Part shown: piece after piece, positions 1,933 through 26,188 of the stretch
Layout of the letters: each line of letters begins with the position of its first letter
Position numbering within the stretch: the first letter of the stretch is position 1
IMG/VR virus record: IMGVR_UViG_3300042342_000377
Location: 1 to 30,870 of that record
Length of the DNA: 30,870 nucleotides
Source: a virus
Lineage: Duplodnaviria > Caudoviricetes
Strand: one strand, 5' to 3'
The notes under the pieces: model-generated
Told to the model about the DNA's origin: nothing
Database searches by the model: none
Seen by the model: the letters and a program-made list of their open reading frames with translations, nothing else
Program-made: the position numbers and the translations under genes

Positions 1933-4900
1933 ATGGCTAAAAGTAAAAATACAATCCTCGCCTCGCTTCTCCATTCAGTCACATCAGGAGCAATATTAAA
2001 AGCAACAGGTGATATATTAGCACCCAGTTTAATCCAAGAATCAGGATCGAATGTAACTATTTCAGGTTCGGGTTCTATTGCAGGCGATTTAACAGTGCAA
2101 GGCACTTTAATTGCACAAGAATTTCGTACAGAATATGTTTCTTCTTCAATACTATATGAAAGTGGTTCAACTAAGTTTGGTGATTCAAATGACGATACTC
2201 ACGTATTTACTGGAATAGTAAGTGTTAGTGGTTCAGTATTAGTGAATGGAGTTCCAGCTATTGGACCTCAAGGATATCAAGGCACTCAAGGAACACAGGG
2301 CAATCAAGGCCCTCAGGGTAATCAAGGCCCACAGGGGATTCAAGGCTCCCAAGGCGCGCAAGGCAATCAAGGTCCTCAGGGTAACCAGGGACCTCAGGGC
2401 AATCAAGGCCCACAAGGCAATCAGGGACCTCAGGGTAACCAAGGCCCTCAAGGCAATCAAGGCCCTCAAGGTATTCAAGGTGCTCAAGGCAACCAAGGCC
2501 CTCAAGGCAATCAGGGACCTCAAGGCAACCAAGGCCCTCAAGGAATACAAGGAGCTCAAGGTAACCAAGGCCCTCAAGGGATTCAAGGAACAGTTGGTAC
2601 AACTGGTGCCCAAGGTAATCAAGGCCCTACAGGTATACAAGGAACATTAGGTGCTCAGGGTAATCAGGGTCCTACAGGTATTCAAGGAACCGTTGGTACA
2701 ACAGGTTTCCAAGGTAACCAAGGTCCAACAGGCTTACAAGGTACAGCTGGTACTAACGGAACAAATGGTTCAAATGGTGCACAAGGCAACCAGGGACCTA
2801 CTGGTTTACAAGGAACAGCAGGCACGAATGGTACAAACGGATCTAATGGAACCAATGGTGCTCAGGGTAATCAAGGCCCAACTGGGTTGCAAGGTACAAC
2901 AGGCGCTGCTTCAACTGTAGCTGGTCCTCAAGGATCTACAGGTGCTGCCTCAACAGTAGCTGGTCCTCAAGGTACCGCTGGTACAAACGGAACTAATGGT
3001 TCGCCTGGTGGAACTGGTCCTCAAGGTGCTACTGGAGCTGCTTCAAGCGTAGCAGGTCCTCAAGGTAATACTGGAGCTCAAGGAACAGCAGGTTCAACTT
3101 CTTATACAGCAACATACGCAACCAATTCAACTAGACTATATGCTAGCGATGGTTCTTATGTATATGGAGGAGCAGCTCCTTATTATATGTATATGACTTA
3201 TGATGGGACAAGATGGTTACTTCAAGTTAATCCTGCTACTCCTTCAGCTGTAAGAGTAGCTTATGCTGATGCCGCGGGTTCTGCTAGTAATGCAACAACA
3301 GCAGGAGGTTTAGCAGTTCACACTGGTACAAATAATGTTGCTAATCAAATAGTAAGAACAGATGCTAGTGGTTATATACAAGCAGGTTGGATAAATACAA
3401 TTTCTGGTGATAATGGAACATCTGCACTAACAAGAATATATGCTTCTGATGATGCTTATTTAAGATACTATACGCCTGCTAACTTTAGACAAGTATTAGA
3501 TGTTCCTACAAGAACAGGTGGAAGTGCGTCTGGTTCTTGGGGTATTAATGTAACGGGATCTGCAGGTAGTGCAGGTAGTGCTGGTTATGCTGCTTATTTA
3601 TCACCTACATATGCAGGTGATGTATATATAAATCCTCAAACATATTTTAATAATGGTATTGGACTCAAAGTAGCCATGACAGGAGCCTGGTCTGTATGGT
3701 CAGATACTTTATGGATAAATGGTTATACTGGAGGTGATGTACCAAATATGTGTGCATTACATTTTTTACGTAATGGAACGCCAAGAATGGCTATTAGTAC
3801 ACAATCATTTTCATCTACTAGTTATGGAACTTATTATGAAGTAATTACAGCATATAATATTGCTTCTCAATCAGTATCATCTGCTTCAACAGCAGGTACA
3901 GTAACTGGATCTTCTACTATAGGAGGATATCTTACATTAAATGTTAACTGGGGTGTAAGTCCTTACACAGCAGCTTTTAATATTGTTGGTACACATCCGT
4001 CAATGGTTTTTAGAGGCAGTAATGGAGATACACATTACATGATCCATATGGATTCTGCTGGAGATATGCAATATTATTTTGGACCAGGATATACAACTAA
4101 TAACTGGACTCAAAGATATACTTTTACCAAGGGCGGGAACTTTAGTGCTCTTACTGGAAACATTTCAGCATCAGGTACAGTTACAGGTTCAAATTTATCA
4201 GGTACAAATACAGGTGATCAGACTAATATATCAGGTAATGCTGCTACATCAACAGCATCATCAGGTGTAAGTTTTTTAACTCAACCTAATGCTAATTGGG
4301 CTGGAAGAATACAATTAGGTGGTAATGGTGGTGGCGGTACTGCTTTAATTGCAGTGGTTCAATCTACCAATGGTAATTTACATATGGATGCAGGAAGTGG
4401 TAACGTAATGTATTTAAATTATTATAATAATGGTACAATTTGGTTAAATGGTAGTACCTATAATATTAGTGCTAATGGTTCACAATATAATGGCAATGCT
4501 GCTACAGCTACTACAGCTGCAAGAGCAACTAGAGCTAATGGTAATTTTTATATAGATGATAACTACGGTAATACCATAGTAGGAGTATATAATGCAGCTA
4601 GATATCAAGGTGTATTTGCAATGGGTGATGCTTATAAATTACCAGCTGATGGTACTAGTACAGGTGGTCTTTATGGTCTTGCTTGGTCACACCCTAATGC
4701 GGGTGGTGTAGCAGGTAATTTAAATGACCATGGTTTACTTGTTATTAATAACGGAGTATTTGCTGCTGCAATATCTAGCTCTATAAGAGCGGCTACTGAT
4801 ATGAGAGCTCCTATATTCTATGATTCAAATGATACAGGATATTATTTAGATCCTAATGGTACATCAAATTTAAATAAGTTAAGTGCATTTACAATGTCTT

Positions 4901-5961
4901 ATAACGACATGAATTCAATGTCGGTAAATTCCCCATATGCTGCTAGATATGCTGGTTCTGCAAATTATCGTAATGGTACAATGGGTTATGGTACTACTGA
5001 TTTTAATGTAATATTCTCTAACTGGGGTTCTGGGTTTATAGATTCGTGGAGTAGTCCAGGTAATGCTCCTGGTGGTTCATCTCACTATGTAGGTCATCAA
5101 GTATGCCACTATAATCATCAAAATAGTACTAATGTATATGGATATCAAATGGCATGTGCTGGTGAAGCTGTTAATAGATTCTTTTGGAGAAGTTCATGGG
5201 CAACCCCAAATGCTTGGGTAGAAATGATACATTCAGGAAATATAGGGTCTCAATCAGTAGCAACAGCAGGTAATATTACGGCATATACTATTAATCAAAG
5301 TGTAGGTTCAGATAATTCACCTTCATTCCATACAGTTCCAACATATTATTTAAGAAATAGGTATGATATAACTACAGATCACCCATATGGAATCTATTTT
5401 GGTACTAGTGTTAGTGATTATTCATATGCTATATATAAACAAACAGGAGCCTGGTCTCACCCTTACCCAGATTTACATATAGCTTTCCATACCGGTATTA
5501 AATTAGGAGCACATTATAGCTATAACGGTATAAGATTTTATAATAACTCAGATTTTGCTACAATAACAGCTTCTATAGGAGATGGTGATAATCATATGAG
5601 AGGTTATTATGACATCATAGCATATGCCTCTGATAAACGTTTAAAACACAACATCCAACCAATTGAAAATGCCTTATCAAAAGTCAATTCATTAACTGGT
5701 ATGACTTACCAATGGAATAATGTAGGTAGCCAACATGGATGGAGTCCGGATATGGAAACAAGAGAGGCCGGAGTATTTGCTCAAGATGTTCAAGCGGTAT
5801 TGCCTGAAGCTGTTAAACTTGCCCCATTTGATAATAATATGGGTGTGTCAAAATCAGGTGAAAACTTCTTAACAGTTAAATATGAAAAAATTGTTCCGTT
5901 ATTAATTGAAGCAATTAAAGAATTAAAAGCAGAAATAGACGAATTAAAGTCTCAAAAATAA
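1933..5961 (+). CDS. Collagen-like tail fibre 1 with C-terminal peptidase-S74-type intramolecular chaperone (1342 aa)
   Basis: G-X-Y tract at 2263-3093, long beta-rich body, C-terminal YASDKRLKHNI...AGVFAQDVQAVLPEAV...[17 protein letters not shown] motif typical of S74 autocleaving chaperones. Confidence 0.88.
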   Translation: MAKSKNTILASLLHSVTSGAILKATGDILAPSLIQESGSNVTISGSGSIAGDLTVQGTLIAQEFRTEYVSSSILYESGSTKFGDSNDDTHVFTGIVSVSGSVLVNGVPAIGPQGYQGTQGTQGNQGPQGNQGPQGIQGSQGAQGNQGPQGNQGPQGNQGPQGNQGPQGNQGPQGNQGPQGIQGAQGNQGPQGNQGPQGNQGPQGIQGAQGNQGPQGIQGTVGTTGAQGNQGPTGIQGTLGAQGNQGPTGIQGTVGTTGFQGNQGPTGLQGTAGTNGTNGSNGAQGNQGPTGLQGTAGTNGTNGSNGTNGAQGNQGPTGLQGTTGAASTVAGPQGSTGAASTVAGPQGTAGTNGTNGSPGGTGPQGATGAASSVAGPQGNTGAQGTAGSTSYTATYATNSTRLYASDGSYVYGGAAPYYMYMTYDGTRWLLQVNPATPSAVRVAYADAAGSASNATTAGGLAVHTGTNNVANQIVRTDASGYIQAGWINTISGDNGTSALTRIYASDDAYLRYYTPANFRQVLDVPTRTGGSASGSWGINVTGSAGSAGSAGYAAYLSPTYAGDVYINPQTYFNNGIGLKVAMTGAWSVWSDTLWINGYTGGDVPNMCALHFLRNGTPRMAISTQSFSSTSYGTYYEVITAYNIASQSVSSASTAGTVTGSSTIGGYLTLNVNWGVSPYTAAFNIVGTHPSMVFRGSNGDTHYMIHMDSAGDMQYYFGPGYTTNNWTQRYTFTKGGNFSALTGNISASGTVTGSNLSGTNTGDQTNISGNAATSTASSGVSFLTQPNANWAGRIQLGGNGGGGTALIAVVQSTNGNLHMDAGSGNVMYLNYYNNGTIWLNGSTYNISANGSQYNGNAATATTAARATRANGNFYIDDNYGNTIVGVYNAARYQGVFAMGDAYKLPADGTSTGGLYGLAWSHPNAGGVAGNLNDHGLLVINNGVFAAAISSSIRAATDMRAPIFYDSNDTGYYLDPNGTSNLNKLSAFTMSYNDMNSMSVNSPYAARYAGSANYRNGTMGYGTTDFNVIFSNWGSGFIDSWSSPGNAPGGSSHYVGHQVCHYNHQNSTNVYGYQMACAGEAVNRFFWRSSWATPNAWVEMIHSGNIGSQSVATAGNITAYTINQSVGSDNSPSFHTVPTYYLRNRYDITTDHPYGIYFGTSVSDYSYAIYKQTGAWSHPYPDLHIAFHTGIKLGAHYSYNGIRFYNNSDFATITASIGDGDNHMRGYYDIIAYASDKRLKHNIQPIENALSKVNSLTGMTYQWNNVGSQHGWSPDMETREAGVFAQDVQAVLPEAVKLAPFDNNMGVSKSGENFLTVKYEKIVPLLIEAIKELKAEIDELKSQK
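2263..3093 (+). repeat. Collagen-like G-X-Q repeat tract, fibre 1
   Basis: [18 protein letters not shown] and GTNGTN triplets; 9/18-nt periodic DNA (caaggc...); GAASTVAGPQ interruptions near the end. Confidence 0.95.
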
Positions 5962-6765: not shown

Positions 6766-9700
6766 ATGAGAATACACAACGCACTAGTTACAGGTTCATT
6801 AGAGGTATCAGGTAGTTTTAAGCTACCTGCAGTTCCACAAGACACATCAGGTTCATTAGATAAGTATCTGGTACTTAACCAAAGTACTGGAGAGATATAT
6901 TATACTTCAAGAGGCTCTCAGGGTACTCAAGGCAATCAAGGCCCTCAGGGTAACCAGGGTCCTCAGGGTAACCAAGGCCCGCAGGGTATTCAAGGGTTTC
7001 AAGGTAACCAGGGCCCACAAGGAATACAAGGTTCTCAAGGACGCCAAGGCCCTCAAGGGGATCAGGGAGCTCAAGGCCGCCAAGGCCCTCAAGGCGATCA
7101 AGGAGCCCAAGGCAGACAAGGCCCTCAAGGGGATCAGGGAGCTCAAGGCCGTCAGGGACCTCAAGGGATTCAAGGAGCACAAGGAAATCAGGGCCCTCAA
7201 GGCATTCAAGGTGCTCAAGGCAATCAGGGCCCTCAGGGTATCCAAGGTTTTCAAGGCAACCAAGGCCCACAAGGCAACCAAGGCAACCAAGGCCCGCAGG
7301 GCAACCAGGGTCCTCAAGGCAATCAAGGGCCACAGGGTAATCAAGGCAACCAAGGCCCACAGGGAAACCAAGGCCCAACAGGTATTCAAGGAACATTAGG
7401 TACACAAGGAGACACAGGATCTCAAGGTGCTAAAGGCGACCAAGGCTATCAAGGTATAGTAGGTCAAGGGTTCATAATCTATCAAACATACAATTCCGTA
7501 GCTTTATTATTGGCTGATTCATCTTGTCCAAACGGACAATTTGGATTAGTAGGAGGAACTCTACCTCAATCAGATCCAGACTACGGTAAACTATATTTAA
7601 GAAGTGGGGGGACATGGTCTTTTACCACAGACATGTCTGTGCAAGGGATTCAAGGTAATACTGGAGCTCAAGGAGCTACAGGACAACAAGGTACTACTGG
7701 ATTTCAAGGTATTACAGGACAACAAGGTCCAACTGGACTTCAGGGGGCTCAGGGTAATCAAGGACCTACAGGTTTTCAAGGAAATCAAGGCCCTCAAGGA
7801 AACCAAGGCCCACAAGGCGATCAAGGCTTCCAAGGCAGACAGGGACCTCAGGGTGACCAAGGTGCTCAAGGTAGACAAGGCCCACAAGGCGATCAAGGAG
7901 CTCAAGGCCGTCAAGGCCCACAGGGTAATCAAGGCCCACAAGGCAATCAGGGACCACAAGGAATTCAAGGTGCTCAAGGCAACCAAGGCCCTCAAGGTAT
8001 TCAAGGAGCTCAAGGAAATCAGGGACCTCAAGGCGTTCAGGGAGCTCAAGGCAACCAAGGTCCTCAAGGTATTCAAGGTGCTACAGGTACAGCAAATATT
8101 AATGGTACTGGCTTTGTAAAGGCAAGCGGTGCTACTATTTCATATGATAATTCAACTTATTTAACCTCTTATACAGAAGTAGATACTCTTGCTACTGTAA
8201 CAGGAAGAGGAGCTACTACCTCAACATCTATAACAGCAGGAGGAATTATTACTGCAGGGACAGGTCAAGGATTTAAAAATCTTAGTTATCAAGGAGGATA
8301 TAATAGAATATGGAGTTTTGGTGGTGGATCAGAAGCATATGGAATTGCATATTATCAAGGAGCAACAGCTCCTGGAGGAACTGATGCTATAGGTTTTCAT
8401 TTTGGAAACACAGCAAGCCCTTTGTTTTATTCTAATAACTTAGGTAATGCTTACTTTTCAGGAACTATATCAGCATCTAACTTTAGCGGTACACATAGCG
8501 GCTCGTCAAGTGGAACTAATACGGGTGATCAAACTAACATATCTGGTACAGCCGCCTATGCTACTCAATGGGGTACTAGTGCAGGATATGCTAATTTTAG
8601 TTCTACTGCTATTTCAGCTTCAGTAGGATGGCTTTTTGGTACTACTGGAAATGGAACTTATGCTCCTGTTTCACTAGCTAGTGTAGCTACTTTACTTGGA
8701 CTAGGATCTTTAGCTTATAGTTCAGCTACAATACCTACGAATAACAATCAGCTTACAAACGGTGCTGGATATATTACTGGAGAGTCAGATACTCTAGCTA
8801 CAGTAACAGCTAGAGGAGCATCTACTACTGCAGCTATAACTATATCAAGAGAAGCAGCGGCTTATGGAGGTACTACTCAATCATTTTTAGTAGATGGTGC
8901 TGGAGGAAATGCAGCTTTAACAATCAATGCTGCTGCTAACTATGCCTATTTAAATTTTGCTCAAGCAGGTGCCACTAAGTTTGAAATAGGATCTGAAGGT
9001 GCTGCTACAAATAAAGGAAGTTTATATTTTAATCATAACATACAGGTAGGTTCTAGTGGTGCCGCCTTATATATTAAAAAATCAAATGGTTTTGTTGGTA
9101 TATTAAATATAGCACCCACAACAGCTCTTGATGTTAGTGGAGCAGGTACTTTTTCATCTACTTTATCACTTGGTGGTGGAATAACTTTTACAGCTCCTGG
9201 TGGTACTGTATTATTAAAACATGCTGTTGCTGAAGTAGATGCTTGGATATTCCAAGAAAATGCTGCTAACTGGGGATTATATTATAAAAATAATCCTAGT
9301 GGTAATCACACATTTGGAGGATATACAACTGTAGGAGCTGAGACTTTTGGATTATCTGCAGCTAACGTGAGTGGAAATGGAGTATTAACATCTAATTTTG
9401 TTGGAGCGACAACAGCTTATGCTCAGTGGATGTTATCAAATTATACTGGATATATTTGGTCTGCTAGTACAATATATGCACAAACATCTATGGTTGTTGG
9501 TGGTAACACCGTACTTCATGCAGCTAATTTTTCATCATATGCTACTCCCATAAGAGTTCAATCAAACTGGAATGATAGCACTGTTATTAATAATGTTGTA
9601 GGTTTATTAGCATGGAAAAACTACGGTAATGCTCACGTTATATTTGATGCATCTAATGGAACTTCTCCAAGTGGAACAGGTGTAAGTCAAACAAATGCCT

Positions 9701-11451
9701 CAAATGCTTGGACGGCTGCTTATCCTACATTAATGGGATGGAATGGATCTGGCACTTATGGTGTAAGAGTAGATAGTGCAAGAATTTCTGATAGTACATC
9801 AGGTAATGCTGGAACTGTTACTGATGGAGTATATTTAAGTGGTACTCAAAATATATCAGGAACAAAATATTTTGTATCAAATAGAGATACATCATCAGAC
9901 TCACCTCCTTTACAAGCATATTCAAATAATGGAAGTGGTGCAATAATGTCTTTTCATAGAGGAGGATATTATGCTGTAAATATGGGTCTTGATTCTGATA
10001 ACGTATTTAGAATAGGTGGATGGAGTGCAGCTGCAAATAGATTACAACTTGATATGAGTGGTAATCTTACTGTTGCAGGAGCAATAGCAGGAAGTAACTT
10101 TAGTGGTAGTCATTCAGGTTCATCTTCTGGAACTAATACTGGAGATCAAACAAATATTAGTGGAAGTTCTGCTACTGTTACTCACTATGCATCAAGAGCT
10201 GATGTTGCATCGTATAATGTAGTTTGGGCAGCAGGTAATCCGTCACATATGTATTCTTGTGACGCTGTTAGAATTCAATCAAGTACAGGTACAATATTTG
10301 CTACTCGTTCAGCTGCTCCTATGTCAGCAACAGTATCAAACGGCAACTGGAATACAAGTTTTTCAAATACACCTGTTTCTACAATGGCTTGGGGTGGAGA
10401 TGTATCATCAGGTGGTCCTACAGGTACTTGGTGGTTCCAAATGAATATGCGTCATAGTAATGCATCAAATGATTGGGGTACACAATTAGCTTATGGATGG
10501 GAAGATAATGCAAATCAGATATATCAACGTAATGTAACAGGAGGAAACTGGAGTGCTTGGGTTAGATACTTGAATAGTGGTAACTATTCTTCTTATGCTC
10601 TTCCATTAAGTGGTGGAACTTTGAGTGGTACACTTCAATTTGCACAACCTGTTGGTCTTGGATTTGCAAATGGACAATACATTAAAGATAATGGTGGAGG
10701 TGGTTTAATTATTAATAGTGGAGCAGCAGTTAATATAGGTGGAACATCAGTAACATTTACTGGTACAACGTATGCTTATAATGGTATACAGATGTATAGA
10801 AATGGGCAAGCCAATACTGGTATTTCTTGGTATAATGCCTCTTATTATAACTGGCAAGAATATATGGCCTCCGCTGGTGCAACAGGATGTGGACCAAATG
10901 CTAACTTAACAGCACCTAGTGGTTTATATCAAGTTACTTCTTGGGCATTACGTTCAAGAATGGAAACTGTAGGAAGCTATGGTTGGTTATGGGAAGTTGG
11001 TGGTGGGGGTGGTGGAGTTGCAGCAGGTAGTGCTGTAATGGAGTTAGATGTATATGGTAATTTAAGAACAGCAGCTGACGTCATAGCATATGCATCAGAT
11101 GGTAGATTAAAAACCAATGTTAAAGTAATAGAAAATGCTTTAAGTAAAGTTCAAGCTATTCGTGGTGTAGAATATGATTGGTTAGATAATATCTATGAAG
11201 ACTATGGTTTCAAACCAACCAAAATGCATGAAGTCGGTGTGATAGCTCAAGAAGTTGAACTTGTTCTTCCAGAAGTTGTTTTAACAGCTCCATTCAATGG
11301 TGCTTATAAAGATAAGCATGGTATTGATCCTAACTTCTTAACTGTTAAATATGATAGAATGGTTCCACTACTAATCGAAGCAATCAAAGAACAACAAACA
11401 CAAATCGAAGAATTAAAATCACAAATATCATATTTGGTAGATAATAAATAA
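6766..11451 (+). CDS. Collagen-like tail fibre 2 with S74-type chaperone (1561 aa)
   Basis: G-X-Q tract 6913-8094 interrupted by a 59-aa domain; TLATVTxRGA x2 and [13 protein letters not shown] x2 shaft motifs; C-terminal [11 protein letters not shown]...VGVIAQEVE...[16 protein letters not shown]. Confidence 0.88.
6913..8094 (+). repeat. Collagen-like G-X-Q repeat tract, fibre 2
   Basis: GNQGPQ and [12 protein letters not shown] repeats, with a non-collagen insert at 7468-7644. Confidence 0.95.
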
Positions 11452-11452
11452 G

Positions 11453-11484
11453 TTTGGTTATTTAATTTATTAGTTGTATATTTG
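11453..11484 (+). promoter_or_regulatory. Bacteroidota housekeeping-sigma-type promoter (-33 TTTG / -7 TAnnTTTG)
   Basis: TTTG 11453-11456, 20-nt spacer, TATATTTG 11477-11484, ATG at 11501; matches the established Bacteroidetes consensus TTTG-N19-21-TAnnTTTG. Confidence 0.7.
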
Positions 11485-11500: not shown

Positions 11501-12436
11501 ATGGCAGATCATATTAATCATTTAACCAATGTTGATGGTGTGTTGTGGTGTGTTGATACAGTAATCTTTAATGGTGATGTTTATACTATTAATGGATGGG
11601 TATCACATATAATGCAACCCGTTAAAGCATTCCTAATTGGTGAAGAAATTATTTCTCCTGGTTTTGAATCAAGATCAGATGTTAAAAAGTTTTATCCTAC
11701 AATCCCCACTGATGAAGTTGGATTCCAATTAATTATTTCAAAACAAGAAATAGACAAACCCGTTGGACTTGTATTACAAGATAATTCCGTAGTAAATTTT
11801 ATTGGTACATTTGAAAAATGGATAGTATTTAATACTGGATTCAATGAAACTTCTAAAAAAGGTATTATAGTAGTAGATAATTTCTACAAAAACCCATCAT
11901 GGGTAAGAGAATATGCAATAAATAATTTAGATTTTAATCCATCAGGATATCATAAAGGACAACGTAGTTCAGATAGATTTATTTTAGAGGGTACTAAAGA
12001 AAAATTTGAAGAGATTTTAGGTAAGAAGATTACAAACTGGAATTATGAGTCATATGCTAATGGAGTATTCCAATATTGCACATCTCAAGATCCAATTGTA
12101 TATCACGTTGATTCTCAAACGTATGCTGCAATGGTGTATTTAACACCAAATGCTCCTTTACAAACAGGTACTGCTACCTATAAAAGCAAAATTACAGGCG
12201 CTACTAGATTTGATAAAACTGAAGGTGACGATTATTACAATACTTTTAAGGGATTAAGTAATAATATGAACTTCTATGACCCAACAACATATGAAGTAGT
12301 AGATACTGTTGCAAATGTTTATAATAGATTAGTTATGTTTGATTCAAAATCAATACACGCAGCAACCGGCTATTTCGGAGATGCAATTGAAAATGCTAGA
12401 TTTTTTCACCTATTTTTCTTTGACGTAGAATGGTAA
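11501..12436 (+). CDS. 2OG-Fe(II) oxygenase-like protein (DUF6445-like) with extra N-terminal domain
   Basis: IIVVDNFY start of the catalytic domain, HxD (YHVD), AMVYLTP...GT, NRLVMFD...IHAA (distal His) and a C-terminal R (ARFFHLFFF). Confidence 0.75.
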   Translation: MADHINHLTNVDGVLWCVDTVIFNGDVYTINGWVSHIMQPVKAFLIGEEIISPGFESRSDVKKFYPTIPTDEVGFQLIISKQEIDKPVGLVLQDNSVVNFIGTFEKWIVFNTGFNETSKKGIIVVDNFYKNPSWVREYAINNLDFNPSGYHKGQRSSDRFILEGTKEKFEEILGKKITNWNYESYANGVFQYCTSQDPIVYHVDSQTYAAMVYLTPNAPLQTGTATYKSKITGATRFDKTEGDDYYNTFKGLSNNMNFYDPTTYEVVDTVANVYNRLVMFDSKSIHAATGYFGDAIENARFFHLFFFDVEW

Positions 12437-14244
12437 TACACATATTAACGCGTTGTACGCGCCCACAGAATTTATTAACAATTCAGAAAACAATATTTGA
12501 AACCTCTGTAGTTGTATATTGGCATATTATCTTTGATACAACAACATTAAAAGATATTGATGCTGAAATGCTAAATAAATTGCAAGGTCCTACTACTAAA
12601 TTTCACTTTGTAAAGGGAGATGGATCTGATTATCTATACCCTCAATTAAATGATATTATAGACGGATTATTTGAAGATGCTTATATTGTAATATTAGATG
12701 ATGACAATTACGTTCATCATTCTTTCTATGACACAATCAAAAAGGAAATAGAAGCAAACCCTGATAAAGAGGCTTTCGTTTATGAACAGCGCATTGATGG
12801 AAGAGATTTTACTGGCTTAGATGTTAGAAAAGTAGGCCCTGAACACATGAAATTAAGACATATAGACTCAGCTCAATATGTTATTAAACAATCATTATAC
12901 ACACAAGGAAAATATGAAGGTGGATATTGTGGCGATGGTGTATTTATAGAAAATTTATATAAACAATTCCCAGATAAATTTCATTTTATTCATTCTGAAC
13001 TGTGTTATTATAATCGTTTAACACCAGTTAAAAAAGCAAAAGTGCCTAAAGTACTTTATATTAATGGCCAATCAGAATTAGAAAGTATTAAACATTTAGG
13101 ATATGAGGATACTAGTTTAAATGTATTATATACACCAAATGATATTAGTATTGAAAGTACATTGACATCATTTAAACCGGATTCAATTATTACTGTTGGT
13201 AAACATTTTAGAGAATTTCCTAATTTAGCTTGCCAACCATTAGAGGTAAGAAAAAGATGGCTTAATGTTGAAGAAGATACTACTGGTAATGGTGATATAG
13301 CTTACAATGTAGCTATGAATCAAATATTAACAGCATCAAATGAACATTTAGTATCATATTTTACCCCAATATATAATACTGGAGATAAATTGTGGAATAC
13401 TTATCGTTCATTACTTGAACAAACATATGAAGATTGGGAATGGATATTGGTAAATGATTCATCTGATGGTGGTAAAACACTTAAAATAGCTGAAGAAATA
13501 GCTAGACGAGATTCAAGAGTAAAAGTATACGATTTTAGAGAAAAAACAGGAGGAATTATTGGTGAATCAAAATATAGAGCAGCTTGTTTAACAAGAGGAT
13601 TCTTATTAGCAGAGTTAGATCATGATGATTTATTAACTGATAACTGTACAATGGATTTAATTAATGCTACTAAAGCATACCCAGATGCAGGTTTCTTCTT
13701 TAATGATAGCGTTGAATTAAATGAAAATTGGGAATCATTAACATATGATGATGGATTTGCTTTTGGGTATGGTAAGTATAGAAAAGAAACTTATAGAGGT
13801 CGTGAATGGGATGTAGCGATTACTCAAAACATCAATCCAAAAACCATAAGACATATTGTAGGGGTTCCAAATCACGTTCGTGCTTGGAGAAGAGATACAT
13901 ATTTCGCTATTGGCGGACATAATAGAGACTTAGCTATTGCTGATGATTATGAATTAGTAGTAAGAACATTCTTACACACTAGAATATGTAAAATACCAAA
14001 AATAGGCTACATTCAGTTCATATATAATAATCATACAGGACAAAATACACACGATTTATCTCGTGCTGATATTCAACGTAGAGTAAGATCGATTATGTAT
14101 CACTATAATGATAGAATTGCAAAGCGATTTGAAGAATTAGGAGTTGAAGATTATGCTTACAACCACAATCCAAACAATCCATTATCAGCCGAAAGTAGAT
14201 TTGGTGATGGTGAAAATTACGTAAACTATATTTATAATGATTAG
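12430..14244 (+). CDS. Two-domain GT-A/GT2-type glycosyltransferase (604 aa)
   Basis: N-terminal GT-A-like domain with VILDDDN; C-terminal GT2 domain with FTPIYN...SLLEQTYEDWEWILVNDSS...ELDHDD...ADDYELVVR. Overlaps the upstream gene. Confidence 0.85.
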   Translation: MVIHILTRCTRPQNLLTIQKTIFETSVVVYWHIIFDTTTLKDIDAEMLNKLQGPTTKFHFVKGDGSDYLYPQLNDIIDGLFEDAYIVILDDDNYVHHSFYDTIKKEIEANPDKEAFVYEQRIDGRDFTGLDVRKVGPEHMKLRHIDSAQYVIKQSLYTQGKYEGGYCGDGVFIENLYKQFPDKFHFIHSELCYYNRLTPVKKAKVPKVLYINGQSELESIKHLGYEDTSLNVLYTPNDISIESTLTSFKPDSIITVGKHFREFPNLACQPLEVRKRWLNVEEDTTGNGDIAYNVAMNQILTASNEHLVSYFTPIYNTGDKLWNTYRSLLEQTYEDWEWILVNDSSDGGKTLKIAEEIARRDSRVKVYDFREKTGGIIGESKYRAACLTRGFLLAELDHDDLLTDNCTMDLINATKAYPDAGFFFNDSVELNENWESLTYDDGFAFGYGKYRKETYRGREWDVAITQNINPKTIRHIVGVPNHVRAWRRDTYFAIGGHNRDLAIADDYELVVRTFLHTRICKIPKIGYIQFIYNNHTGQNTHDLSRADIQRRVRSIMYHYNDRIAKRFEELGVEDYAYNHNPNNPLSAESRFGDGENYVNYIYND

Positions 14245-14884
14245 TATTATTATCCCTACATTGTGGCAGTCAGATTGCATTTATGAAACCATTCGTGATT
14301 TCAAATATAGTCAAGTTGAAGGAGCTGAATTAATTATTATTGACAACGCCAATAGTGATTATGATGAAGAAGGTGTTACATTTGTTAGACAAACAGAAAA
14401 CATATTTGTAAACCCCGCCTGGAATTTAGGTGTATCTTTAGCTAAAAATGATACTATATGTTTATTAAACGACGACATAACAATTAATTTAAAAACGTTA
14501 TTTAATAATATCTCCCGTTTTCCCGAATACGGAATGATAGGATTTGACGCCAATAGAAACCTCACTCAAACGCTGAATGTTGATGATGAAATTTGGGAAT
14601 TAGAAGATGCTACTTGCCGCAGTTTAGGATTTGGTTGCATGATGATAATGCCTAAAGCACATTACGAAATAATCCCATCAGATTTAAAAATATATTTTGG
14701 TGATGATATGTTATATTGGTTAAATAAAGATTTCTTTAAACGTAAAGTTTATAATATTAAAAATTTAAAATCAACAGGTGAATTAAGCAAAACTAGCAGA
14801 CCATATGAACCACAACTTCAGATAGAATTACCTTATTTCCACTCAGCAATCCAACAATTACAACAAAAATATACTAATTTATAA
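14237..14884 (+). CDS. Glycosyltransferase family 2 protein
   Basis: ISIIIPT, LIIIDNA, NPAWNLG, CLLNDD, GFGCMMI and YFGDD motifs. Confidence 0.85.
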   Translation: MISIIIPTLWQSDCIYETIRDFKYSQVEGAELIIIDNANSDYDEEGVTFVRQTENIFVNPAWNLGVSLAKNDTICLLNDDITINLKTLFNNISRFPEYGMIGFDANRNLTQTLNVDDEIWELEDATCRSLGFGCMMIMPKAHYEIIPSDLKIYFGDDMLYWLNKDFFKRKVYNIKNLKSTGELSKTSRPYEPQLQIELPYFHSAIQQLQQKYTNL

Positions 14885-14893
14885 ATAATATAC

Positions 14894-15448
14894 ATGAATA
14901 CTAAAGAACATTTATTTGAAATGAGAGATGGGCAGTACGCTCAAGGGTTAGAAGATTTAATTTCACATATACAAAAACATAGTGATACTAAAAATATGAC
15001 AATGGTAGAAATTGGCTCTTATGCTGGTGAGTCTACTATCATATTTGCAAAACATTTTAAAAATGTAATTGCTATTGATCCTTTCATGAACGATTATGAT
15101 CCAAATGATATTACTTGTAATTATATGGAGTTAACGGACGTTCATAAAGTATTTAATAATACAATCCTTCCTTTTGATAATATACAACATATTCACAAAA
15201 CATCTGATGATGCTATTGATGATTTAATTGAACAAAAGTTTGATTTTATTTATATAGATGGATTACACACTTATGATCAAATTAAAAAAGATATTCGTAA
15301 TTATTTTCCAATAATCAATAAAGGTGGATTTATTGGTGGACATGATTTTCATAAAAATTGGCAAGGAGTTATAGATGGTATATTAGAAACTATTGGAATA
15401 CCAGACGAAACATTTAAAGATACAAGTTGGATTAAACAAATAAAATAA
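14894..15448 (+). CDS. Class I SAM-dependent methyltransferase (Methyltransf_24-like)
   Basis: VEIGSYAGES motif I, IAIDPF, FDFIYIDGLHTY, GGFIGGHDF. Confidence 0.88.
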   Translation: MNTKEHLFEMRDGQYAQGLEDLISHIQKHSDTKNMTMVEIGSYAGESTIIFAKHFKNVIAIDPFMNDYDPNDITCNYMELTDVHKVFNNTILPFDNIQHIHKTSDDAIDDLIEQKFDFIYIDGLHTYDQIKKDIRNYFPIINKGGFIGGHDFHKNWQGVIDGILETIGIPDETFKDTSWIKQIK

Positions 15449-15451
15449 GAT

Positions 15452-16489
15452 ATGAAAAATTTCTGCATAGGAACTTTAACACATGATGCACCTAAGCGAG
15501 GTGAATATTTTATAGATACAGTTAATAGTTTTTTAGAAAACACCATAGTTCCAGAAGGTGTAAATTGGTTTATATATTTTAATGGTGGTCATGATAGTCC
15601 TGTTATAAGCTCTATTAATGAAATGATTGATAAGTGGAGCCATAAGGTAAATTTTCATTTATTCTGTGAAGGTAAAAACTTAGGTGTAGGTCCGGGTATA
15701 AACAAATTAAACGAACATTTAAAATTATACGAATATTCTTTCTTTTTAGAAGGGGATTGGATTACATTACCACAATCTATAAGTGGATTTGATAAAAATT
15801 GGTTAATGGATTGTTTAGAATTATTAGAAACTAATAATGAAATAGACCAAATACAATTACGTAGATTCTTGCATGATGTGGATGATAGACAGTTTGGGTA
15901 TGGTTATTGGATAAAACAATCTAATATTAAACAAGAAACTGATAAATTTTTCTTTCTAAATGAAAGAGAATATGGTAATAACCCAACTGTCCGTAGAAAT
16001 CAAAAACATTTTGATGTAGGAATTTTCCCATTAAAAGAATATTATGATGAAAGTGGAGAACCTATGGAATTAAAAGGTAATCCATATTGGGGGCAAGCAG
16101 AAATACAATCATCTGGTTTGGGAAAACAATTAGGATCAGCTGCATTAAAATTTGGAAACTTTGTTCATTGTGACCATTGGCAGTATGGTACTGATTTTGA
16201 AAAAGCAATTGAAGATATAAAAGGATGTGGATTTAAAACCAATTCAGTTATAAATTGCAAATATGGATTTTTATTCCCACGTGAAGAATTTTGTTTAGGA
16301 TGTAGAGCATCAAAAGCATTTACTGATTTAGAATCACACAACATATTCTTTGAAACTGAAATTCACCATGCGTTTTGGTCAAAACAACCAAGAGAAACTA
16401 TTAAAGAAAGAATTTTAACAAACGAAGAATTACCTCCGGTGAATATTGATGAATATATCGATATTGTACTTAAAAAATCAAATTACTAA
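15452..16489 (+). CDS. Divergent GT-A-fold (glycosyltransferase-like) protein with Cys-containing C-terminal part
   Basis: NLGVGPGIN followed by FFLEGDW (DxD-like), QIQLR and NNPT; the C-terminal region has several Cys including CLGC. Confidence 0.55.
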   Translation: MKNFCIGTLTHDAPKRGEYFIDTVNSFLENTIVPEGVNWFIYFNGGHDSPVISSINEMIDKWSHKVNFHLFCEGKNLGVGPGINKLNEHLKLYEYSFFLEGDWITLPQSISGFDKNWLMDCLELLETNNEIDQIQLRRFLHDVDDRQFGYGYWIKQSNIKQETDKFFFLNEREYGNNPTVRRNQKHFDVGIFPLKEYYDESGEPMELKGNPYWGQAEIQSSGLGKQLGSAALKFGNFVHCDHWQYGTDFEKAIEDIKGCGFKTNSVINCKYGFLFPREEFCLGCRASKAFTDLESHNIFFETEIHHAFWSKQPRETIKERILTNEELPPVNIDEYIDIVLKKSNY

Positions 16490-16502
16490 TAAAATATAAA
16501 CA

Positions 16503-17093
16503 ATGGTACAAACAGGTTATTTATTCTCAAAGAAACATGTTGATCTTCAAAACTATTACTATTTTGATAATGGGTTTAATGAAGAAGAATTAAACAAAAT
16601 TTATAGAGATGTGAATGATATTGATTTTGTAGAAGCCACCACTATTGGTGGTGAAAATAAAGAAGCACGTTCATCTTCTATTAAATGGATCCCACAAAAT
16701 ATGAAATGGGATTGGTTATATGGTAGACTAATGGACATGGCTGTTGAAGCAAATGATGCTTTATGGGGATTTGACCTATATTCAGCACCAGAACAAATAC
16801 AATACACTGAATATTACGCTTCAGAAGGTGGTCACTACATTTGGCACCAAGACATTGGACCTGGGATGTTATCGCTCCGTAAAGTGTCTATTACAGTTCA
16901 ATTATCCGATCCTAGCGAATATGAAGGTGGTGATTTGGATATTTGGCAAGGAGGTAAAGAACCTATCACTGCACCACGCGGCAAAGGTACAGTAGTTATA
17001 TTCCCTTCATACATGATGCACCGCGTTTCACCAGTAACTGTGGGAACTCGTAGATCGTTTGTGTTGTGGCTTGGGGGAGAACATTATCGTTAA
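16503..17093 (+). CDS. 2OG-Fe(II) oxygenase, prolyl-4-hydroxylase/PKHD-like
   Basis: QYTEY...GHYIWHQD (HxD), RKVSITVQLS...YEGGDL, IFPSYMMHRVSPVTVGTRRSFVLW (His and R-x-S 2OG-binding motif). Confidence 0.9.
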   Translation: MVQTGYLFSKKHVDLQNYYYFDNGFNEEELNKIYRDVNDIDFVEATTIGGENKEARSSSIKWIPQNMKWDWLYGRLMDMAVEANDALWGFDLYSAPEQIQYTEYYASEGGHYIWHQDIGPGMLSLRKVSITVQLSDPSEYEGGDLDIWQGGKEPITAPRGKGTVVIFPSYMMHRVSPVTVGTRRSFVLWLGGEHYR

Positions 17094-17665: not shown

Positions 17666-19936
17666 ATGGCTTTATCTTTAAGATCAACTTTAGGACGCCC
17701 GCTTACCTGGCAGGAAATGGACACTAACTGGACGTCACTAAGTGGTAGCATAGCAGCAATCACAATATCAAATGGCGCTCAAGGATTTCAAGGCACTCAA
17801 GGAACTACAGGTTCTCAAGGTGTTCAAGGTCCCGTAGGTGCACAAGGCAATCAAGGTCCATTAGGTCTTCAAGGCGTTCAAGGTCCAATAGGTATACAAG
17901 GTGTAGTTGGCCCTCAAGGCAACCAAGGCCCAATAGGTGTACAAGGTGAAGTTGGCTCGCAAGGACTTCAAGGTATTAAGGGTGATCAAGGATTTACAGG
18001 CAATCAAGGTAATCAAGGCCCACTCGGCCCTCAAGGATATACAGGCGATCAAGGTGCTAAAGGTGATCAAGGTAATCAAGGTCCAACAGGTCAACAGGGT
18101 AACCAAGGCCCAACCGGTTTTCAAGGTAATCAAGGTAATCAAGGCCCTACAGGTCTTCAAGGTAATCAAGGCAACCAAGGTCCAACAGGTTTTCAAGGTA
18201 ATCAAGGCAACCAAGGCCCTCAAGGTAACCAAGGCTTAACAGGGCAACAAGGCAATCAAGGTCCACAAGGCAACCAAGGTCCAACAGGTTTTCAAGGTAA
18301 TCAAGGCGATCAAGGAAATCAAGGTCCTACAGGGCAACAAGGCAACCAAGGTCCTCAAGGCAATCAAGGACCTCAGGGAATACAAGGAACAAAAGGCGAT
18401 CAAGGAAATCAAGGTCCTACAGGGCAACAAGGCAACCAAGGTCCTTTAGGATTTCAAGGTTTCCAAGGTAATGGAGCACAAGGAGTACAAGGCCCTCAAG
18501 GCAACCAAGGCTACCAAGGAATAACAGGACAAGGATTTACAATTTATCAAATATATAACTCAGTAGCTTTATTGTTAGCTGATAATTCATGTCCCGAGGG
18601 ACAATTTGGTTTGGTTGGGGGCAGTTTATCTCAATCAGATCCTGATTATGGAAAGTTATATTTAAGAAGTGGTGGAACATGGAACTTTTCAACAGATATG
18701 TCTGTTCAAGGTATTCAAGGCCCTCAAGGAACAAAAGGCGATCAAGGTAACCAAGGTCCTCAAGGAATACAAGGAACAAAAGGCGACCAAGGAAATCAAG
18801 GCCCAACAGGACAACAAGGCAACCAAGGCCCTCAAGGAATACAAGGAACAAAAGGCGATCAAGGAAATCAAGGCCCAAATGGTCCTCAAGGCAACCAAGG
18901 TCCTCAAGGCAATCAAGGTCCTCAAGGAATACAAGGAACAAAAGGCGATAAAGGCGATCAAGGTTTTCAAGGCCCACAAGGTAATCAAGGCCCACAGGGT
19001 AATCAAGGCCCACAAGGCAACCAAGGCCCTCAAGGAATACAAGGGACAAAAGGAGATCAAGGCAACCAAGGCCCTCAAGGAATACAAGGAACAAAAGGCG
19101 ATCAGGGTAACCAAGGCCCAAATGGTAATAATTCAACAGTACCTGGCCCTCAAGGAAATCAAGGCCCTAATGGTAATAATTCAATAGTAGCGGGTCCACA
19201 AGGTCGTCAAGGCCCTAGTGGTTTAGATTCAACAACAGCGGGTCCTCAAGGCCGTCAAGGCCCTTCAGGTACTGATTCTACAACAGCAGGCCCTCAAGGC
19301 CGTCAAGGTCCTACAGGCCCTAGTTCAACAGTAGCTGGTCCTCAAGGAAATCAAGGCCCTACAGGTACTGGAGATGCAGGCCCTCAAGGACGTCAAGGCC
19401 CTACAGGTAATGGTCCTCAAGGAAATCAAGGCCCACAAGGTAACCAAGGTCCCACAGGTACTGGTAATCAAGGCAATCAAGGTCCAACAGGTGCAGGCCC
19501 ACAAGGCAACCAAGGCCCACAAGGTAACCAAGGCCCTACAGGTCCTGGATTTAATGCTATTTCACCGGCAACAAATAATGCTTTATTAATTAGTAATGGT
19601 ACTTCAACCGGAGCTACTACAAATGCAGCAATAACAGTAAGTGGAAATACAATTTATGCGGATGGTTTCTGGCAGAATTCATCTCGCTATTTAAAAAATA
19701 ATATTATTCCTTTCAATATTGATGCTTTAGCTCTATTAAATCAAGTTAATATAGTAACATTTAATTATAAGGATGATAAAGATAGTGTATCTCACATTGG
19801 ATTTATTGCTGAAGATACTCCAATAGAGTTATCTTCTCCAAAGAAAAATGCAATGGATATCCCATCAACAGTAGGTGTGTTAATAAAAGCAATTCAACAA
19901 TTAGAAGCTAGAATAAAAGAATTAGAATCTAAATAA
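17666..19936 (+). CDS. Collagen-like fibre 3, almost entirely G-X-Y, with S74-type chaperone (756 aa)
   Basis: Short N-terminal anchor (LTWQEMDTNW), G-X-Q tract 17774-19549, C-terminal NSSRYLKNNI...HIGFIAED...VGVLIKAIQQLEARI. Confidence 0.85.
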   Translation: MALSLRSTLGRPLTWQEMDTNWTSLSGSIAAITISNGAQGFQGTQGTTGSQGVQGPVGAQGNQGPLGLQGVQGPIGIQGVVGPQGNQGPIGVQGEVGSQGLQGIKGDQGFTGNQGNQGPLGPQGYTGDQGAKGDQGNQGPTGQQGNQGPTGFQGNQGNQGPTGLQGNQGNQGPTGFQGNQGNQGPQGNQGLTGQQGNQGPQGNQGPTGFQGNQGDQGNQGPTGQQGNQGPQGNQGPQGIQGTKGDQGNQGPTGQQGNQGPLGFQGFQGNGAQGVQGPQGNQGYQGITGQGFTIYQIYNSVALLLADNSCPEGQFGLVGGSLSQSDPDYGKLYLRSGGTWNFSTDMSVQGIQGPQGTKGDQGNQGPQGIQGTKGDQGNQGPTGQQGNQGPQGIQGTKGDQGNQGPNGPQGNQGPQGNQGPQGIQGTKGDKGDQGFQGPQGNQGPQGNQGPQGNQGPQGIQGTKGDQGNQGPQGIQGTKGDQGNQGPNGNNSTVPGPQGNQGPNGNNSIVAGPQGRQGPSGLDSTTAGPQGRQGPSGTDSTTAGPQGRQGPTGPSSTVAGPQGNQGPTGTGDAGPQGRQGPTGNGPQGNQGPQGNQGPTGTGNQGNQGPTGAGPQGNQGPQGNQGPTGPGFNAISPATNNALLISNGTSTGATTNAAITVSGNTIYADGFWQNSSRYLKNNIIPFNIDALALLNQVNIVTFNYKDDKDSVSHIGFIAEDTPIELSSPKKNAMDIPSTVGVLIKAIQQLEARIKELESK
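17774..19549 (+). repeat. Collagen-like G-X-Q repeat tract, fibre 3
   Basis: GNQGPQ, GPTGQQ and GIQGTKGDQ repeats; insert at 18533-18709; S(T/I)(V/T)(A/P)GPQ interruptions near the end. Confidence 0.95.
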
Positions 19937-24522: not shown

Positions 24523-24537
24523 GAGTTATAAACAATA

Positions 24538-24545
24538 ATATTTAT
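24538..24545 (+). promoter_or_regulatory. ATATTTAT motif, putative late promoter
   Basis: Begins 31 nt before the tube ATG 24569. Confidence 0.55.
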
Positions 24546-24568
24546 TAATAGACAAAATTTAACATAAA

Positions 24569-25054
24569 ATGGCTGTATTAGATGCAAACCAAATAATGTT
24601 CACCGCTTTCGAACCAAAGGTGCAAAACCGTTTCATCATGTATGTAGATGGTATCCCAGCATATTTGATCAAGAAAGCAGCGTCTCCTCAGTTTGACGCA
24701 GGTGAAATCATCTTAGATCACATTAACGTTTACCGTAAAGTAAAAGGTAAAGTTAAGTGGCAAGACATGACTTTAGAATTATATGACCCAATCACTCCGA
24801 GCGGTGCTCAAGCAGTAATGGAATGGGCTCGTTTGGCTCACGAATCAGTAACTGGCCGTGATGGTTATTCTGATTTTTATAAAAAAGATTTAGTACTAAA
24901 CGTATTAGGCCCAGTAGGTGACATAGTTAGCGAATGGGTAATCAAAGGTGCATATGTAAAAACTGCAAACTTTGGTGAATACGATTGGTCTAGTGAAGCA
25001 GCAGTTAACTTATCAGTTACTATTGCTATGGATTATTGTGTATTGAATTTCTAA
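24569..25054 (+). CDS. Tail tube protein (T4 gp19-like)
   Basis: 161 aa directly after the sheath; EPKVQNRF, GKVKWQDMTL, YKKDLVL...W...GA...FGEYDW pattern. Confidence 0.9.
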   Translation: MAVLDANQIMFTAFEPKVQNRFIMYVDGIPAYLIKKAASPQFDAGEIILDHINVYRKVKGKVKWQDMTLELYDPITPSGAQAVMEWARLAHESVTGRDGYSDFYKKDLVLNVLGPVGDIVSEWVIKGAYVKTANFGEYDWSSEAAVNLSVTIAMDYCVLNF

Positions 25055-25077
25055 TTCCCTTCATATTTCTTTTCCTT

Positions 25078-25111
25078 AAGGCGTCTGCTTATGCAGACGT
25101 CTTTCTTTTTT
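25078..25111 (+). terminator. Intrinsic terminator after tail tube
   Basis: AAGGCGTCTGC, TTAT loop, GCAGACGTCTT followed by TCTTTTTT. Confidence 0.8.
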
Positions 25112-25113
25112 GT

Positions 25114-25122
25114 ATATTTATA
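25114..25122 (+). promoter_or_regulatory. ATATTTATA motif, putative late promoter
   Basis: Immediately after the terminator; begins 31 nt before ATG 25145. Confidence 0.6.
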
Positions 25123-25144
25123 TATACACAAATAAAAATGTTAT

Positions 25145-25897: not shown

Positions 25898-25901
25898 ACC
25901 T

Positions 25902-26150
25902 ATGGTATTTGGCCAAATCCACGAAATAGTATTTCATGGAAAAGGTGGATACGATTGGAATACGGTGTATAACATGCCAATATGGTTACGTCGATTTACG
26001 TTCCAAAAGATAAAAAAGTTTTATGAAGATGAAAATGAAGCTGTTGAAAAGCAAAATAAACAGATGGAAAACAAATCAAATTCATCATCAAAACCATTAA
26101 CCCCAAACGTATCACAACCTACATACTCAACGAGAGCGCCTAAGAAATAG
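25902..26150 (+). CDS. Second tail-assembly chaperone segment (gp51/gpT-like), probably a frameshift extension
   Basis: YDWNTVYNMPIWLRRF motif; frame extends upstream as FFGLTQEDRP; lacks the A-rich leader seen on most other genes. Confidence 0.65.
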   Translation: MVFGQIHEIVFHGKGGYDWNTVYNMPIWLRRFTFQKIKKFYEDENEAVEKQNKQMENKSNSSSKPLTPNVSQPTYSTRAPKK

Positions 26151-26158: not shown

Positions 26159-26159
26159 A

Positions 26160-26168: not shown

Positions 26169-26188
26169 TGGGTAATTAAAACACAGTA

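Follow-up and report, generated by a model that had tools for sequence, protein, structure and literature searches.

The virus record IMGVR_UViG_3300042342_000377 (Duplodnaviria; Caudoviricetes) is a stretch of 30,870 nucleotides (nt) from a large phage that is uncultured, analysed here as a whole and referred to as the window, which constitutes the complete record and covers the tail region of a myophage. Between the second and third of its long fibre genes, F2 and F3, which carry collagen-like G-X-Y repeats, lies a cassette of six genes (positions 11,501 to 17,093) which, judging from gene content and neighbourhood, probably modifies the collagen of the phage's own tail fibres. All six are on the + strand and, in order, they encode OX1 (11501..12436; 311 amino acids (aa)), a 2-oxoglutarate (2OG)-Fe(II) oxygenase resembling DUF6445 and Syn9-gp52; GTGT (12430..14244; 604 aa), composed of a probable GT-A domain (GTa), a middle domain and a GT2 domain (GTb) with the motif DHDD...PNHVRAWR; GT2 (14237..14884; 215 aa), a small GT2-family glycosyltransferase; MT (14894..15448; 184 aa), a methyltransferase dependent on S-adenosylmethionine (Methyltransf_24); GTL (15452..16489; 345 aa), a divergent GT2-like protein; and OX2 (16503..17093; 196 aa), a PKHD/PiuC-like 2OG-Fe(II) oxygenase (phrog_61) and candidate X-position prolyl hydroxylase. 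OX1 and GTGT are core genes while GT2, GTL and, rarely, MT are accessories.

Co-occurrence with collagen-like genes

OX1 loci were retrieved from IMG/VR, the best 80 of 280 being fetched. Collagen is present in 69 of the 80 and it lies beside OX1 in 49 of the 51 loci with at least 5 kb of upstream sequence, and in 33 of 37 clusters formed at 80% identity. Sheath-anchored loci served as a control, taken from 14 distant relatives in which a stretch of at least 8 kb upstream was available and free of collagen; they carry mostly S74 or lectin-type fibre genes. Pfam matches to glycosyltransferases, methyltransferases and 2OG oxygenases were absent upstream of the sheath in these collagen-less relatives, for the 80 proteins scanned of 86 listed with lengths of 140-1200 aa, six evident structural proteins being excluded. 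The enzymes are present in two further sheath-anchored loci, of which L247 belongs to a record with collagen and L256 is a short fragment. Among 43 whole or longer records, picked by length and mostly fragments, OX1 occurs together with full GTGT in six, all of them collagen-positive, and in none of the 29 collagen-less records; these six form one clade, so that the comparison is weak taken alone. The cultured cyanophage DSL-LC02 encodes an OX1 homologue (47%) in an opposite-strand three-gene block adjoining three collagen fibre genes. In GTb-anchored loci of other phages, many T4-like with the gene beside gp13, OX1 accompanies GTb in 72 of 80 and, of the 28 that are well flanked, 16 have collagen at most 10 kb away from GTb.

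For bacteria, GTDB was scanned with a DNA motif that detects only those GTb sequences bearing WEW, DHDD and P[ND]H, and the first 80 of 120 loci were analysed. They derive mostly from Actinomycetota but also from Bacteroidota, Chlorobi and Proteobacteria, and all 80 encode GTb. In 45 of 51 fully flanked loci, and in 65 of 80 overall, a collagen-like open reading frame (ORF) is found no more than 10 kb from GTb, compared with 5 of 80 for reversed sequence. The co-occurrence of the enzymes with collagen fibres, which a sequence-only reading of this stretch had put forward as a check, was thus borne out in both phages and bacteria. Since OX1 occurs in only 7 of the 80 loci, GTb does not need OX1 in bacteria; a search of genome contigs with OX1 found no relative.

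In five bacterial genomes of 2.5-10.3 Mb, chosen because collagen was nearby, every G-X-Q pattern match lies at most 20 kb from GTb, and at most 8 kb away in four of them. Among 121 Streptomyces genomes, eight or more pattern matches occur in 8 of 11 genomes with GTb versus 6 of 110 without (p 5e-7), where the four-repeat pattern is noisy (80 of 121 genomes match) and the cut of eight was the analyst's choice; two of the GTb-bearing genomes have no pattern match. The bacterial partner proteins have the collagen repeat in common and otherwise differ, and they include proteins with Kelch heads, secreted Streptomyces proteins and a siphophage-type tail protein.

Some other genes recur at these loci. 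Streptomycete GTb loci add genes with tetratricopeptide repeats (TPR) (L531:326-994, L531:10569-11144 and L580:9192-9899) and L531 also carries RmlC, pointing to rhamnose donors. A protein of ~325 aa followed by a TPR gene is found repeatedly near collagen genes or OX1 (L276:8833-9807, L277:9738-10712, L426:5854-6840); in DSL-LC02 it is annotated as a beta-mannosyltransferase and, from N-termini compared by eye, it may represent another collagen-linked family.

Core genes, accessories and catalytic motifs

The six genes are tightly coupled, as the sequence-only reading had described, and their ORFs, order and spacing were all reproduced: the junctions from OX1 to OX2 are -7, -8, 9, 3 and 13 nt, OX1 begins 49 nt after F2 and a single 154-aa gene separates OX2 from F3. 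GTGT lies within 3 kb of OX1 in 78 of the 80 OX1 loci. The remaining genes are far less constant, OX2 being present in 47, GT2 in 25, GTL in 23 and MT in 4, and at other loci GT17, other GT2s, sulfotransferases or more oxygenases take their place. OX1 and GTGT therefore form the core, and the six-gene order represents one among several versions of a cassette with exchangeable accessories; a fixed six-gene operon, and with it the earlier picture of one six-gene pathway, was discarded. By hand count, 104 of the best 120 longer homologues have the OX1 domain fused to GT2, often together with TPR and methyltransferase domains and, because of these fusions, OX1 can be placed, at the level of sequence, in a glycosylation pathway.

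Among close relatives of the window (L037, L039, L040, L042, L043, L202 and L203), F3 has shifted to GDK/GDQ-rich repeats and an extra 2OG oxygenase (a 190-aa gene after GTGT) is present, mostly replacing GT2; this constitutes a single correlated change. In the OX1 fold search, a 585-aa Satyrvirus protein with a GT2 domain aligned to the OX1 domain with 37% identity, which points to a giant-virus fusion of GT2 and OX1, and L326, a GVMAG contig, contains G-X-Q collagens.

OX1 matches DUF6445 (E 3e-11) and phrog_1644. Its residues H202, D204, H286 and R300 constitute an HxD...H...R set, of which H202 is conserved to at least 90% and the other three are invariant; the predicted structure (predicted local distance difference test score 94.6) matches 2OG folds in the fold search and syn9 gp52 resembles OX1 at 27%. 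The N-terminal ~110 aa form a beta-rich domain of no known family, for which an ESM search returned nothing but unnamed matches with scores below 0.9. The 'minor coat protein' label of phrog_1644 conflicts with the motif and fold of a 2OG oxygenase and is likely a misannotation. OX2 matches 2OG-FeII_Oxy_3 as well as phrog_61, with H115, D117, H173 and R183 as the corresponding set, and it is closest to PKHD/PiuC, the match to a prolyl 4-hydroxylase (P4H) structure being weaker (E 8e-5). Both proteins carry the features of 2OG-Fe(II) dioxygenases, namely HxD...H and the 2OG-binding Arg, with the fold of OX1 a modelled one.

PF00535 matches GTGT at residues 311-445, which correspond to GTb, and the small GT2 (3e-6). 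The GTb motifs D397-H-D-D400 and D505-D506 are invariant in 55 sequences and, with the PF00535 match, DxD and an acidic catalytic motif, GTb and GT2 belong to the GT2 (GT-A) glycosyltransferases. GTa has a conserved DDDN and a weak PF00535 match (E 1e-4 to 6e-4) in two relatives, and it occurs as a gene of its own after GTb in locus L440. GTL is GT2-like by ESM features (0.99; a cluster with 18% PF00535), and PF00535 is detected in 2 of 48 GTL homologues; the family scan of window proteins gave no match for GTL, and profile-profile comparison gave none of either GTa or GTL to GTb. MT likely O-methylates a glycan, its family Methyltransf_24 being fused with GT2 and DUF6445 in L007.

The absence of obvious membrane anchors, noted earlier, was confirmed in that no membrane segment was found in the six proteins, the highest 19-residue hydropathy being 1.03. 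TPR families were not found in the six either, whereas GT2-TPR proteins were seen at other loci and in OX1 fusions. The earlier statement that genes for nucleotide-sugar synthesis, flippases and DNA methylases are missing holds within the window, where such families were not found among 25 proteins scanned; for sugar nucleotides it does not extend beyond it, since the complete relative G001, described below, encodes a NAD epimerase/dehydratase and other glycosyltransferases.

Collagen composition and candidate residues

The candidate substrates are the three long fibres of the window, all encoded on the + strand and all joining G-X-Y repeats to an S74 chaperone: F1 (1933..5961) with 81 triplets (Gln at Y in 53), F2 (6766..11451) with 112 (Gln at Y in 98; at X, Pro in 28 and Asn in 23) and F3 (17666..19936) with 143 (at Y, Gln in 103 and Thr in 15; at X, Pro in 41 and Asn in 39). 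Gln occupies Y in most triplets, and Pro and Asn occur at X. Pro is present 102 times at X versus once at Y, in line with the sequence-only reading, whereas animal-type collagen P4H acts on Pro at Y in X-Pro-Gly.

Pro at X makes up 0 to 52% in the collagens that accompany OX1, some of which are (GTS/GSS)n; the 197 collagen triplets of DSL-LC02, which carries the closest cultured relative of OX1, include 3 Pro and 2 Asn and are free of Lys. Because its partners are so variable in Pro and DSL-LC02 is nearly without Pro, Asn and Lys, OX1 is unlikely to be a general hydroxylase of any of these residues, and action on Pro or Asn, suggested earlier, was rejected as its general role; it may instead target Gln, Thr or the glycan. 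Ser/Thr amounts to 19% or more per triplet in each of the 30 representative phage collagen sets, consistent with O-glycosylation. Among bacterial GTb partner collagens, 13 of 62 have at most 5% Ser/Thr and are Gln-rich, which argues against Thr/Ser, the acceptor envisaged earlier, as a universal one for GTb. Neither OX1 nor GTb, from the make-up of their partners, appears to be a general prolyl or Thr enzyme, since they accompany Pro-free and Ser/Thr-free collagens.

OX2 behaves differently with respect to Pro. All nine sets with a Pro content of 20% or more have it, versus 10 of 23 Pro-poorer sets, the first phage set having been subjected to 15 composition tests with uncorrected p values; these showed no association of OX2 with Asn, Gln, Ser/Thr or Lys content. 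In a second phage set, from which dereplication had removed L456, all seven members with OX2 have a Pro content of 0.22-0.42 as against 0-0.16 in the eight without (p 3e-4). Of the long loci anchored on OX2 itself, 26 of 33 include collagen, as do 33 of 54 clusters, with a median Pro of 0.26 compared with 0.11 in a Gln-selected scan, and OX2-anchored loci lacking GTb include (GPI/GPQ/GPT)n collagens with 52-87% Pro, nearly all at X. OX2 is thus a candidate for X-position prolyl hydroxylation, tracking collagens that are Pro-rich with Pro at X, and the earlier proposal of a Pro-linked oxygenase survives for this protein. The small GT2 also goes with Pro-rich collagens, a pairing with OX2 that was chosen after the composition table had been seen.

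A more far-reaching scheme can be formulated, which we consider rather unlikely. GTb would mark a widespread and so far undescribed enzyme system that serves phage and bacterial G-X-Q collagens and acts on Gln at Y, through an amide-linked sugar or a sugar on hydroxyglutamine made by OX1, while OX2 and the small GT2 would hydroxylate and glycosylate Pro at X, so that the enzyme set follows triplet composition as a modular code. It is based on a median Gln at Y of 0.56 in the 62 bacterial partner collagens, on the 13 of them that are poor in Ser/Thr and on the L555 collagen, with 95% Gln, ~5% Pro and 3% Ser/Thr; several phage partners that are (GTS/GSS)n with 4-10% Gln count against it.

Setting, alternatives and known systems

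In the window, genes for sheath, tube, baseplate hub and a probable tape measure occupy 22810-28861. The cassette DNA recurs in other assemblies (L001 and L196) with 100% protein identity, and a complete relative of 171 kb with terminal repeats, G001, has a sheath that is 92% identical. G001 is T4-like, with gp23, portal and gp32, and elsewhere in its genome, among the 88 of 147 listed ORFs that were scanned for families, it encodes GroEL, ClpP, GT25, a GT1-type enzyme and the epimerase and glycosyltransferases mentioned above. Its FolE, QueC and QueD genes are grouped with the NAD epimerase/dehydratase near DNA polymerase (L029:8801-14311), possibly as a deazaguanine pathway. For moraphages, the portion of PMC12619734 cited here gives a genome above 200 kb and a place in a marker-gene clade; the G001 genome is 171 kb.

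At 29213-30868 of the window a baseplate-region gene carries a low-complexity insert with R-Q-N-N-R and F-E-R-S-T repeats and weak pentapeptide matches, and its length varies from ~620 to ~950 aa among relatives. Another relative, G018 (L420-L423; complete, 183 kb), has more than 1000 (GSS/GTS) triplets, no OX1, a different cassette in its tail region (GT1/GT9, GT2, FkbM, CmcI, 2OG) and also a large sugar-nucleotide-like cluster.

The 49-nt gap before OX1 contains a match to the Bacteroidota sigma-type promoter, TTTG-N20-TATATTTG (11453..11484, + strand), the consensus being taken from part of PMC6847099. It is the sole + strand TTTG/TANNTTTG match of the window, where about one would be expected by chance, such that only its position counts. 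The A-rich leaders and the TTTG-N20-TANNTTTG match suggest a Bacteroidota host. In G001, the motif is present in the same gap and also before small early-region genes and DNA polymerase; a form TTGG/GTGG-N~19-CGTA[CT]ATTT lies upstream of many small genes, DNA polymerase, gp32 and OX1 (L027, L029, L030, L035) and is likely an early Bacteroidota-type promoter. A second motif, ATATTTAT, which in reverse complement reads as the late motif of T4, precedes structural-module genes at window positions 5961, 6733, 17093, 17636, 21434, 22764, 24538, 25114, 26160 and 28866 (and also occurs at 14228 and 22962) and is likely a late promoter; it was found upstream of 0 of 19 replication-region genes of L029, against a coding background of 21/4965. 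A sigma-70 scan yielded fewer sites than shuffles (53 versus 71).

The mechanism proposed here draws its chemical steps, all of them inferred, from gene identity, catalytic motifs, position and the finding that OX1, GTb and OX2 tend to lie in loci with collagen-like genes. Six soluble proteins would be made from an early host-type promoter, ahead of the late fibre chains, and within the infected cell they would modify the collagen stalks of the tail fibres of this phage. In G-P-Y triplets OX2 would hydroxylate the Pro at X, with the small GT2 acting alongside it; provided that the fibres are the substrate, the case for this step appears about evenly balanced. The OX1-GTGT core would glycosylate polar side chains in the repeat, those of Ser/Thr if it contains them or, alternatively, those of Gln or of a residue hydroxylated by OX1. 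Extension and O-methylation of the glycan would fall to GTL and MT, nucleotide sugars coming from host or phage, and the likely benefit would be a fibre surface that is stabilised, shielded from proteases and variable. Because animal collagen modifications precede trimer formation (as excerpted from PMC8968730), an early unit fits enzymes that are needed before collagen chains fold; it also fits host-surface or DNA modification.

A number of observations weigh against this proposal. In phages, 8 of 14 collagen-positive records of the lineage lack OX1, one of them ending at the cassette and two (G018 and G014) having other glycosyltransferase clusters; the L256 fragment carries GT1, FkbM and sulfotransferase genes with collagen not in view; and in S-CRM01 GTb lies near psbA, ~50 kb away from the collagens. 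No collagen occurs within 10 kb of GTb in 12 of the 28 well-flanked phage loci. Of 27 records without nearby collagen, eight are at least 45% complete and seven of these have the ten-triplet pattern elsewhere, one with only three overlapping matches and another (L026) with only a weak GTb; the reversed-pattern control was uninformative, the pattern being symmetric. Conversely, OX1 or GTb occurs in 6 of 63 flanked viral G-X-Q collagen contigs and OX2 in one, and such collagen was therefore rejected as a marker of the cassette; 6 of 63 is still a large enrichment over the roughly 280 and 1500 stretches among 2.9 million contigs. Collagen fibres do not need the cassette, and the link runs one way. 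The closest solved relatives of GTb are polysaccharide polymerases and GalT1, a GT2-TPR gene of the sort fused to OX1 elsewhere is missing from the window, and no single residue is common to all partner collagens. For OX2, L456 has a weaker OX2-like gene beside a collagen with 3% Pro, and near Pro-free collagens adjoin OX2 in L638, L668, L699 and L681. Tree-based pairs for OX2 and Pro in the first set gave four in the same direction, none opposite and one tie (p 0.125); the two sets provide five and two independent pairs, six in the predicted direction and none opposite, with trait definitions that differ and neither set significant. Finally, the cassette has an early-type promoter, and co-transcription from the late motif is not supported, this being upstream of OX1 in 2 of 59 cases as against 8 of 9 for the sheath and 24 of 40 for fibres.

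Several of these points would suit remodelling of the host surface, in which the cassette alters O-antigen or capsule, blocks superinfection and sits in the host-recognition island through co-variation with receptor-binding fibres. Glycosyltransferase clusters in such islands of pelagimyophages have been read in this way (part of PMC7029224), as have those of jumbo cyanophages (part of PMC7824862), and the early-type promoter, the resemblance of GTb to polysaccharide synthases and the frequent location before gp13 in T4-like phages agree with it. We consider it quite unlikely, because it leaves unexplained why, in several phyla, GTb adjoins the sole G-X-Q gene of a bacterial chromosome, why such enzymes are absent from collagen-less relatives and why OX2 tracks Pro content, and the enzymes are without membrane anchors. 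It is improbable that the virion is glycosylated outside the collagen repeat, with Ser/Thr/Gly-rich fibre heads, the capsid or the tube as targets in the manner of mycobacteriophages: bacterial partners resemble one another in the collagen repeat and differ elsewhere, and S74 fibres without collagen lack the enzymes, even if phage glycosyltransferases are cited as modifying capsid and tail tube (in the part of PMC12619734 used), partner collagens have no residue in common and the window fibres have long Ser/Thr-rich non-collagen parts.

DNA hypermodification by an oxygenase and glycosyltransferase pair, as in TET/JBP-glycosyltransferase clusters, would accommodate the oxidise-then-glycosylate logic of the OX1-glycosyltransferase fusions and an early-type promoter shared with DNA polymerase in G001. 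The sequence-only reading had named it as an alternative, and we consider it highly improbable: there is no TET/JBP structure among the OX1 fold matches listed and no DNA C5-methylase in the window or in the 88 G001 proteins scanned, the chromosomal bacterial copies lie beside secreted collagens and TPR genes, and G001 has separate FolE, QueC and QueD genes. The genes could also be auxiliary metabolic genes that act on a small metabolite, or they could hitchhike in an island prone to recombination, just some of them, such as GTb, being tied to collagen. Syn9-gp52-like oxygenases have been placed in secondary-metabolite neighbourhoods (part of PMC2938197), distant DUF6445 members (26-31%) are common in cyanophages and OX1 accompanies GTb in few bacterial loci; against this stand the near-invariant OX1-GTGT pairing, the GT2 fusions and the collagen in most long OX2-anchored loci, and we regard the explanation as very improbable.

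If the fibre collagen is indeed modified, collagen modification would extend to the tailed-phage fibres of abundant aquatic phages, functions would be provided for DUF6445 and for the common phage 'P4H-like' genes, whose use has been called cryptic (part of PMC9301287), and the reading of tail-island glycosyltransferases as O-antigen modifiers would be reopened. Parts of the system are present in the cultured cyanophage DSL-LC02 and in cultured Streptomyces and are directly testable, and recombinant collagen might be modified with the enzymes as tools. Apart from spore BclA and giant viruses, the collagens of prokaryotes and phages are usually said to carry no modification (part of PMC8968730). 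Our literature search, with subscription papers outside its scope, found no paper whose title or opening abstract lines describe this module and none naming DUF6445; new here are the negative controls, the division of roles by collagen composition, a cultured test phage and the early promoter.

SgtA-type systems employ a TPR-bearing GT2 as the initiating enzyme, and none was found in the window. In Clostridioides difficile, SgtA is encoded next to bclA3 and adds O-linked N-acetylglucosamine to Thr of collagen peptides, and to Thr/Ser of GPT repeats in vitro, with an extended capped glycan in vivo (part of PMC7157674); the glycosylation of BclA in Bacillus belongs with it. Both systems have a dedicated soluble glycosyltransferase gene adjoining a collagen-like surface gene, the context found here for GTb. 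Here, in contrast, the carrier is a phage tail fibre, Gln and not Thr dominates at Y, 2OG oxygenases belong to the core and GTb is of a GT2 subfamily that is usually methyltransferase-fused and lacks TPR. The 'eukaryote-like' maturation proposed earlier was overstated in that this bacterial collagen glycosylation is the closer model. Mimivirus L230 is also similar, with a virus-encoded 2OG oxygenase and glycosyltransferase acting on its own collagen-like proteins (part of PMC9614988), and the OX1-GT2 fusions mirror the two-activity design of L230 or of animal LH3/PLOD with COLGALT. L230, however, hydroxylates Lys at Y, whereas the window fibres have 11 Lys in 368 triplets, DSL-LC02 has none and Lys at Y is absent from many partner collagens; OX1 belongs to DUF6445, with no PLOD among the fold matches listed.

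A neighbourhood-based prediction that 2OG oxygenases modify co-encoded collagen-like proteins was made by Iyer et al. 2010 for bacterial operons of beta-hydroxylase and sulfotransferase genes with collagen-like or tail-collar genes (excerpts of PMC2938197). Those systems involve other oxygenase families and sulfation rather than glycosylation, and the Syn9-gp52 family named there, which OX1 matches at 27%, was tied to secondary metabolites. Pelagimyophages and cyanomyophages likewise have glycosyltransferase genes interspersed with genes for tail fibres and collagen repeats, in a variable island that precedes the neck genes, those enzymes being mostly GT8 and read there as modifying O-antigen (excerpts of PMC7029224). 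The TET/JBP-glycosyltransferase clusters are distinguished by their defining oxygenase and a nearby DNA C5-methylase, neither of which was found among the fold matches listed for OX1 or the window and G001 proteins scanned. Mycobacteriophage virion glycosylation was reportedly described by Freeman et al. 2023. As cited in the part of PMC12619734 used, phage glycosyltransferases there also act on their own particle, at the C-termini of capsid and tail-tube proteins and not on collagen fibres. By analogy, the cassette, while departing from the defining features of L230/LH3, animal P4H and TET-glycosyltransferase clusters, would appear to work like SgtA-BclA3 and L230.

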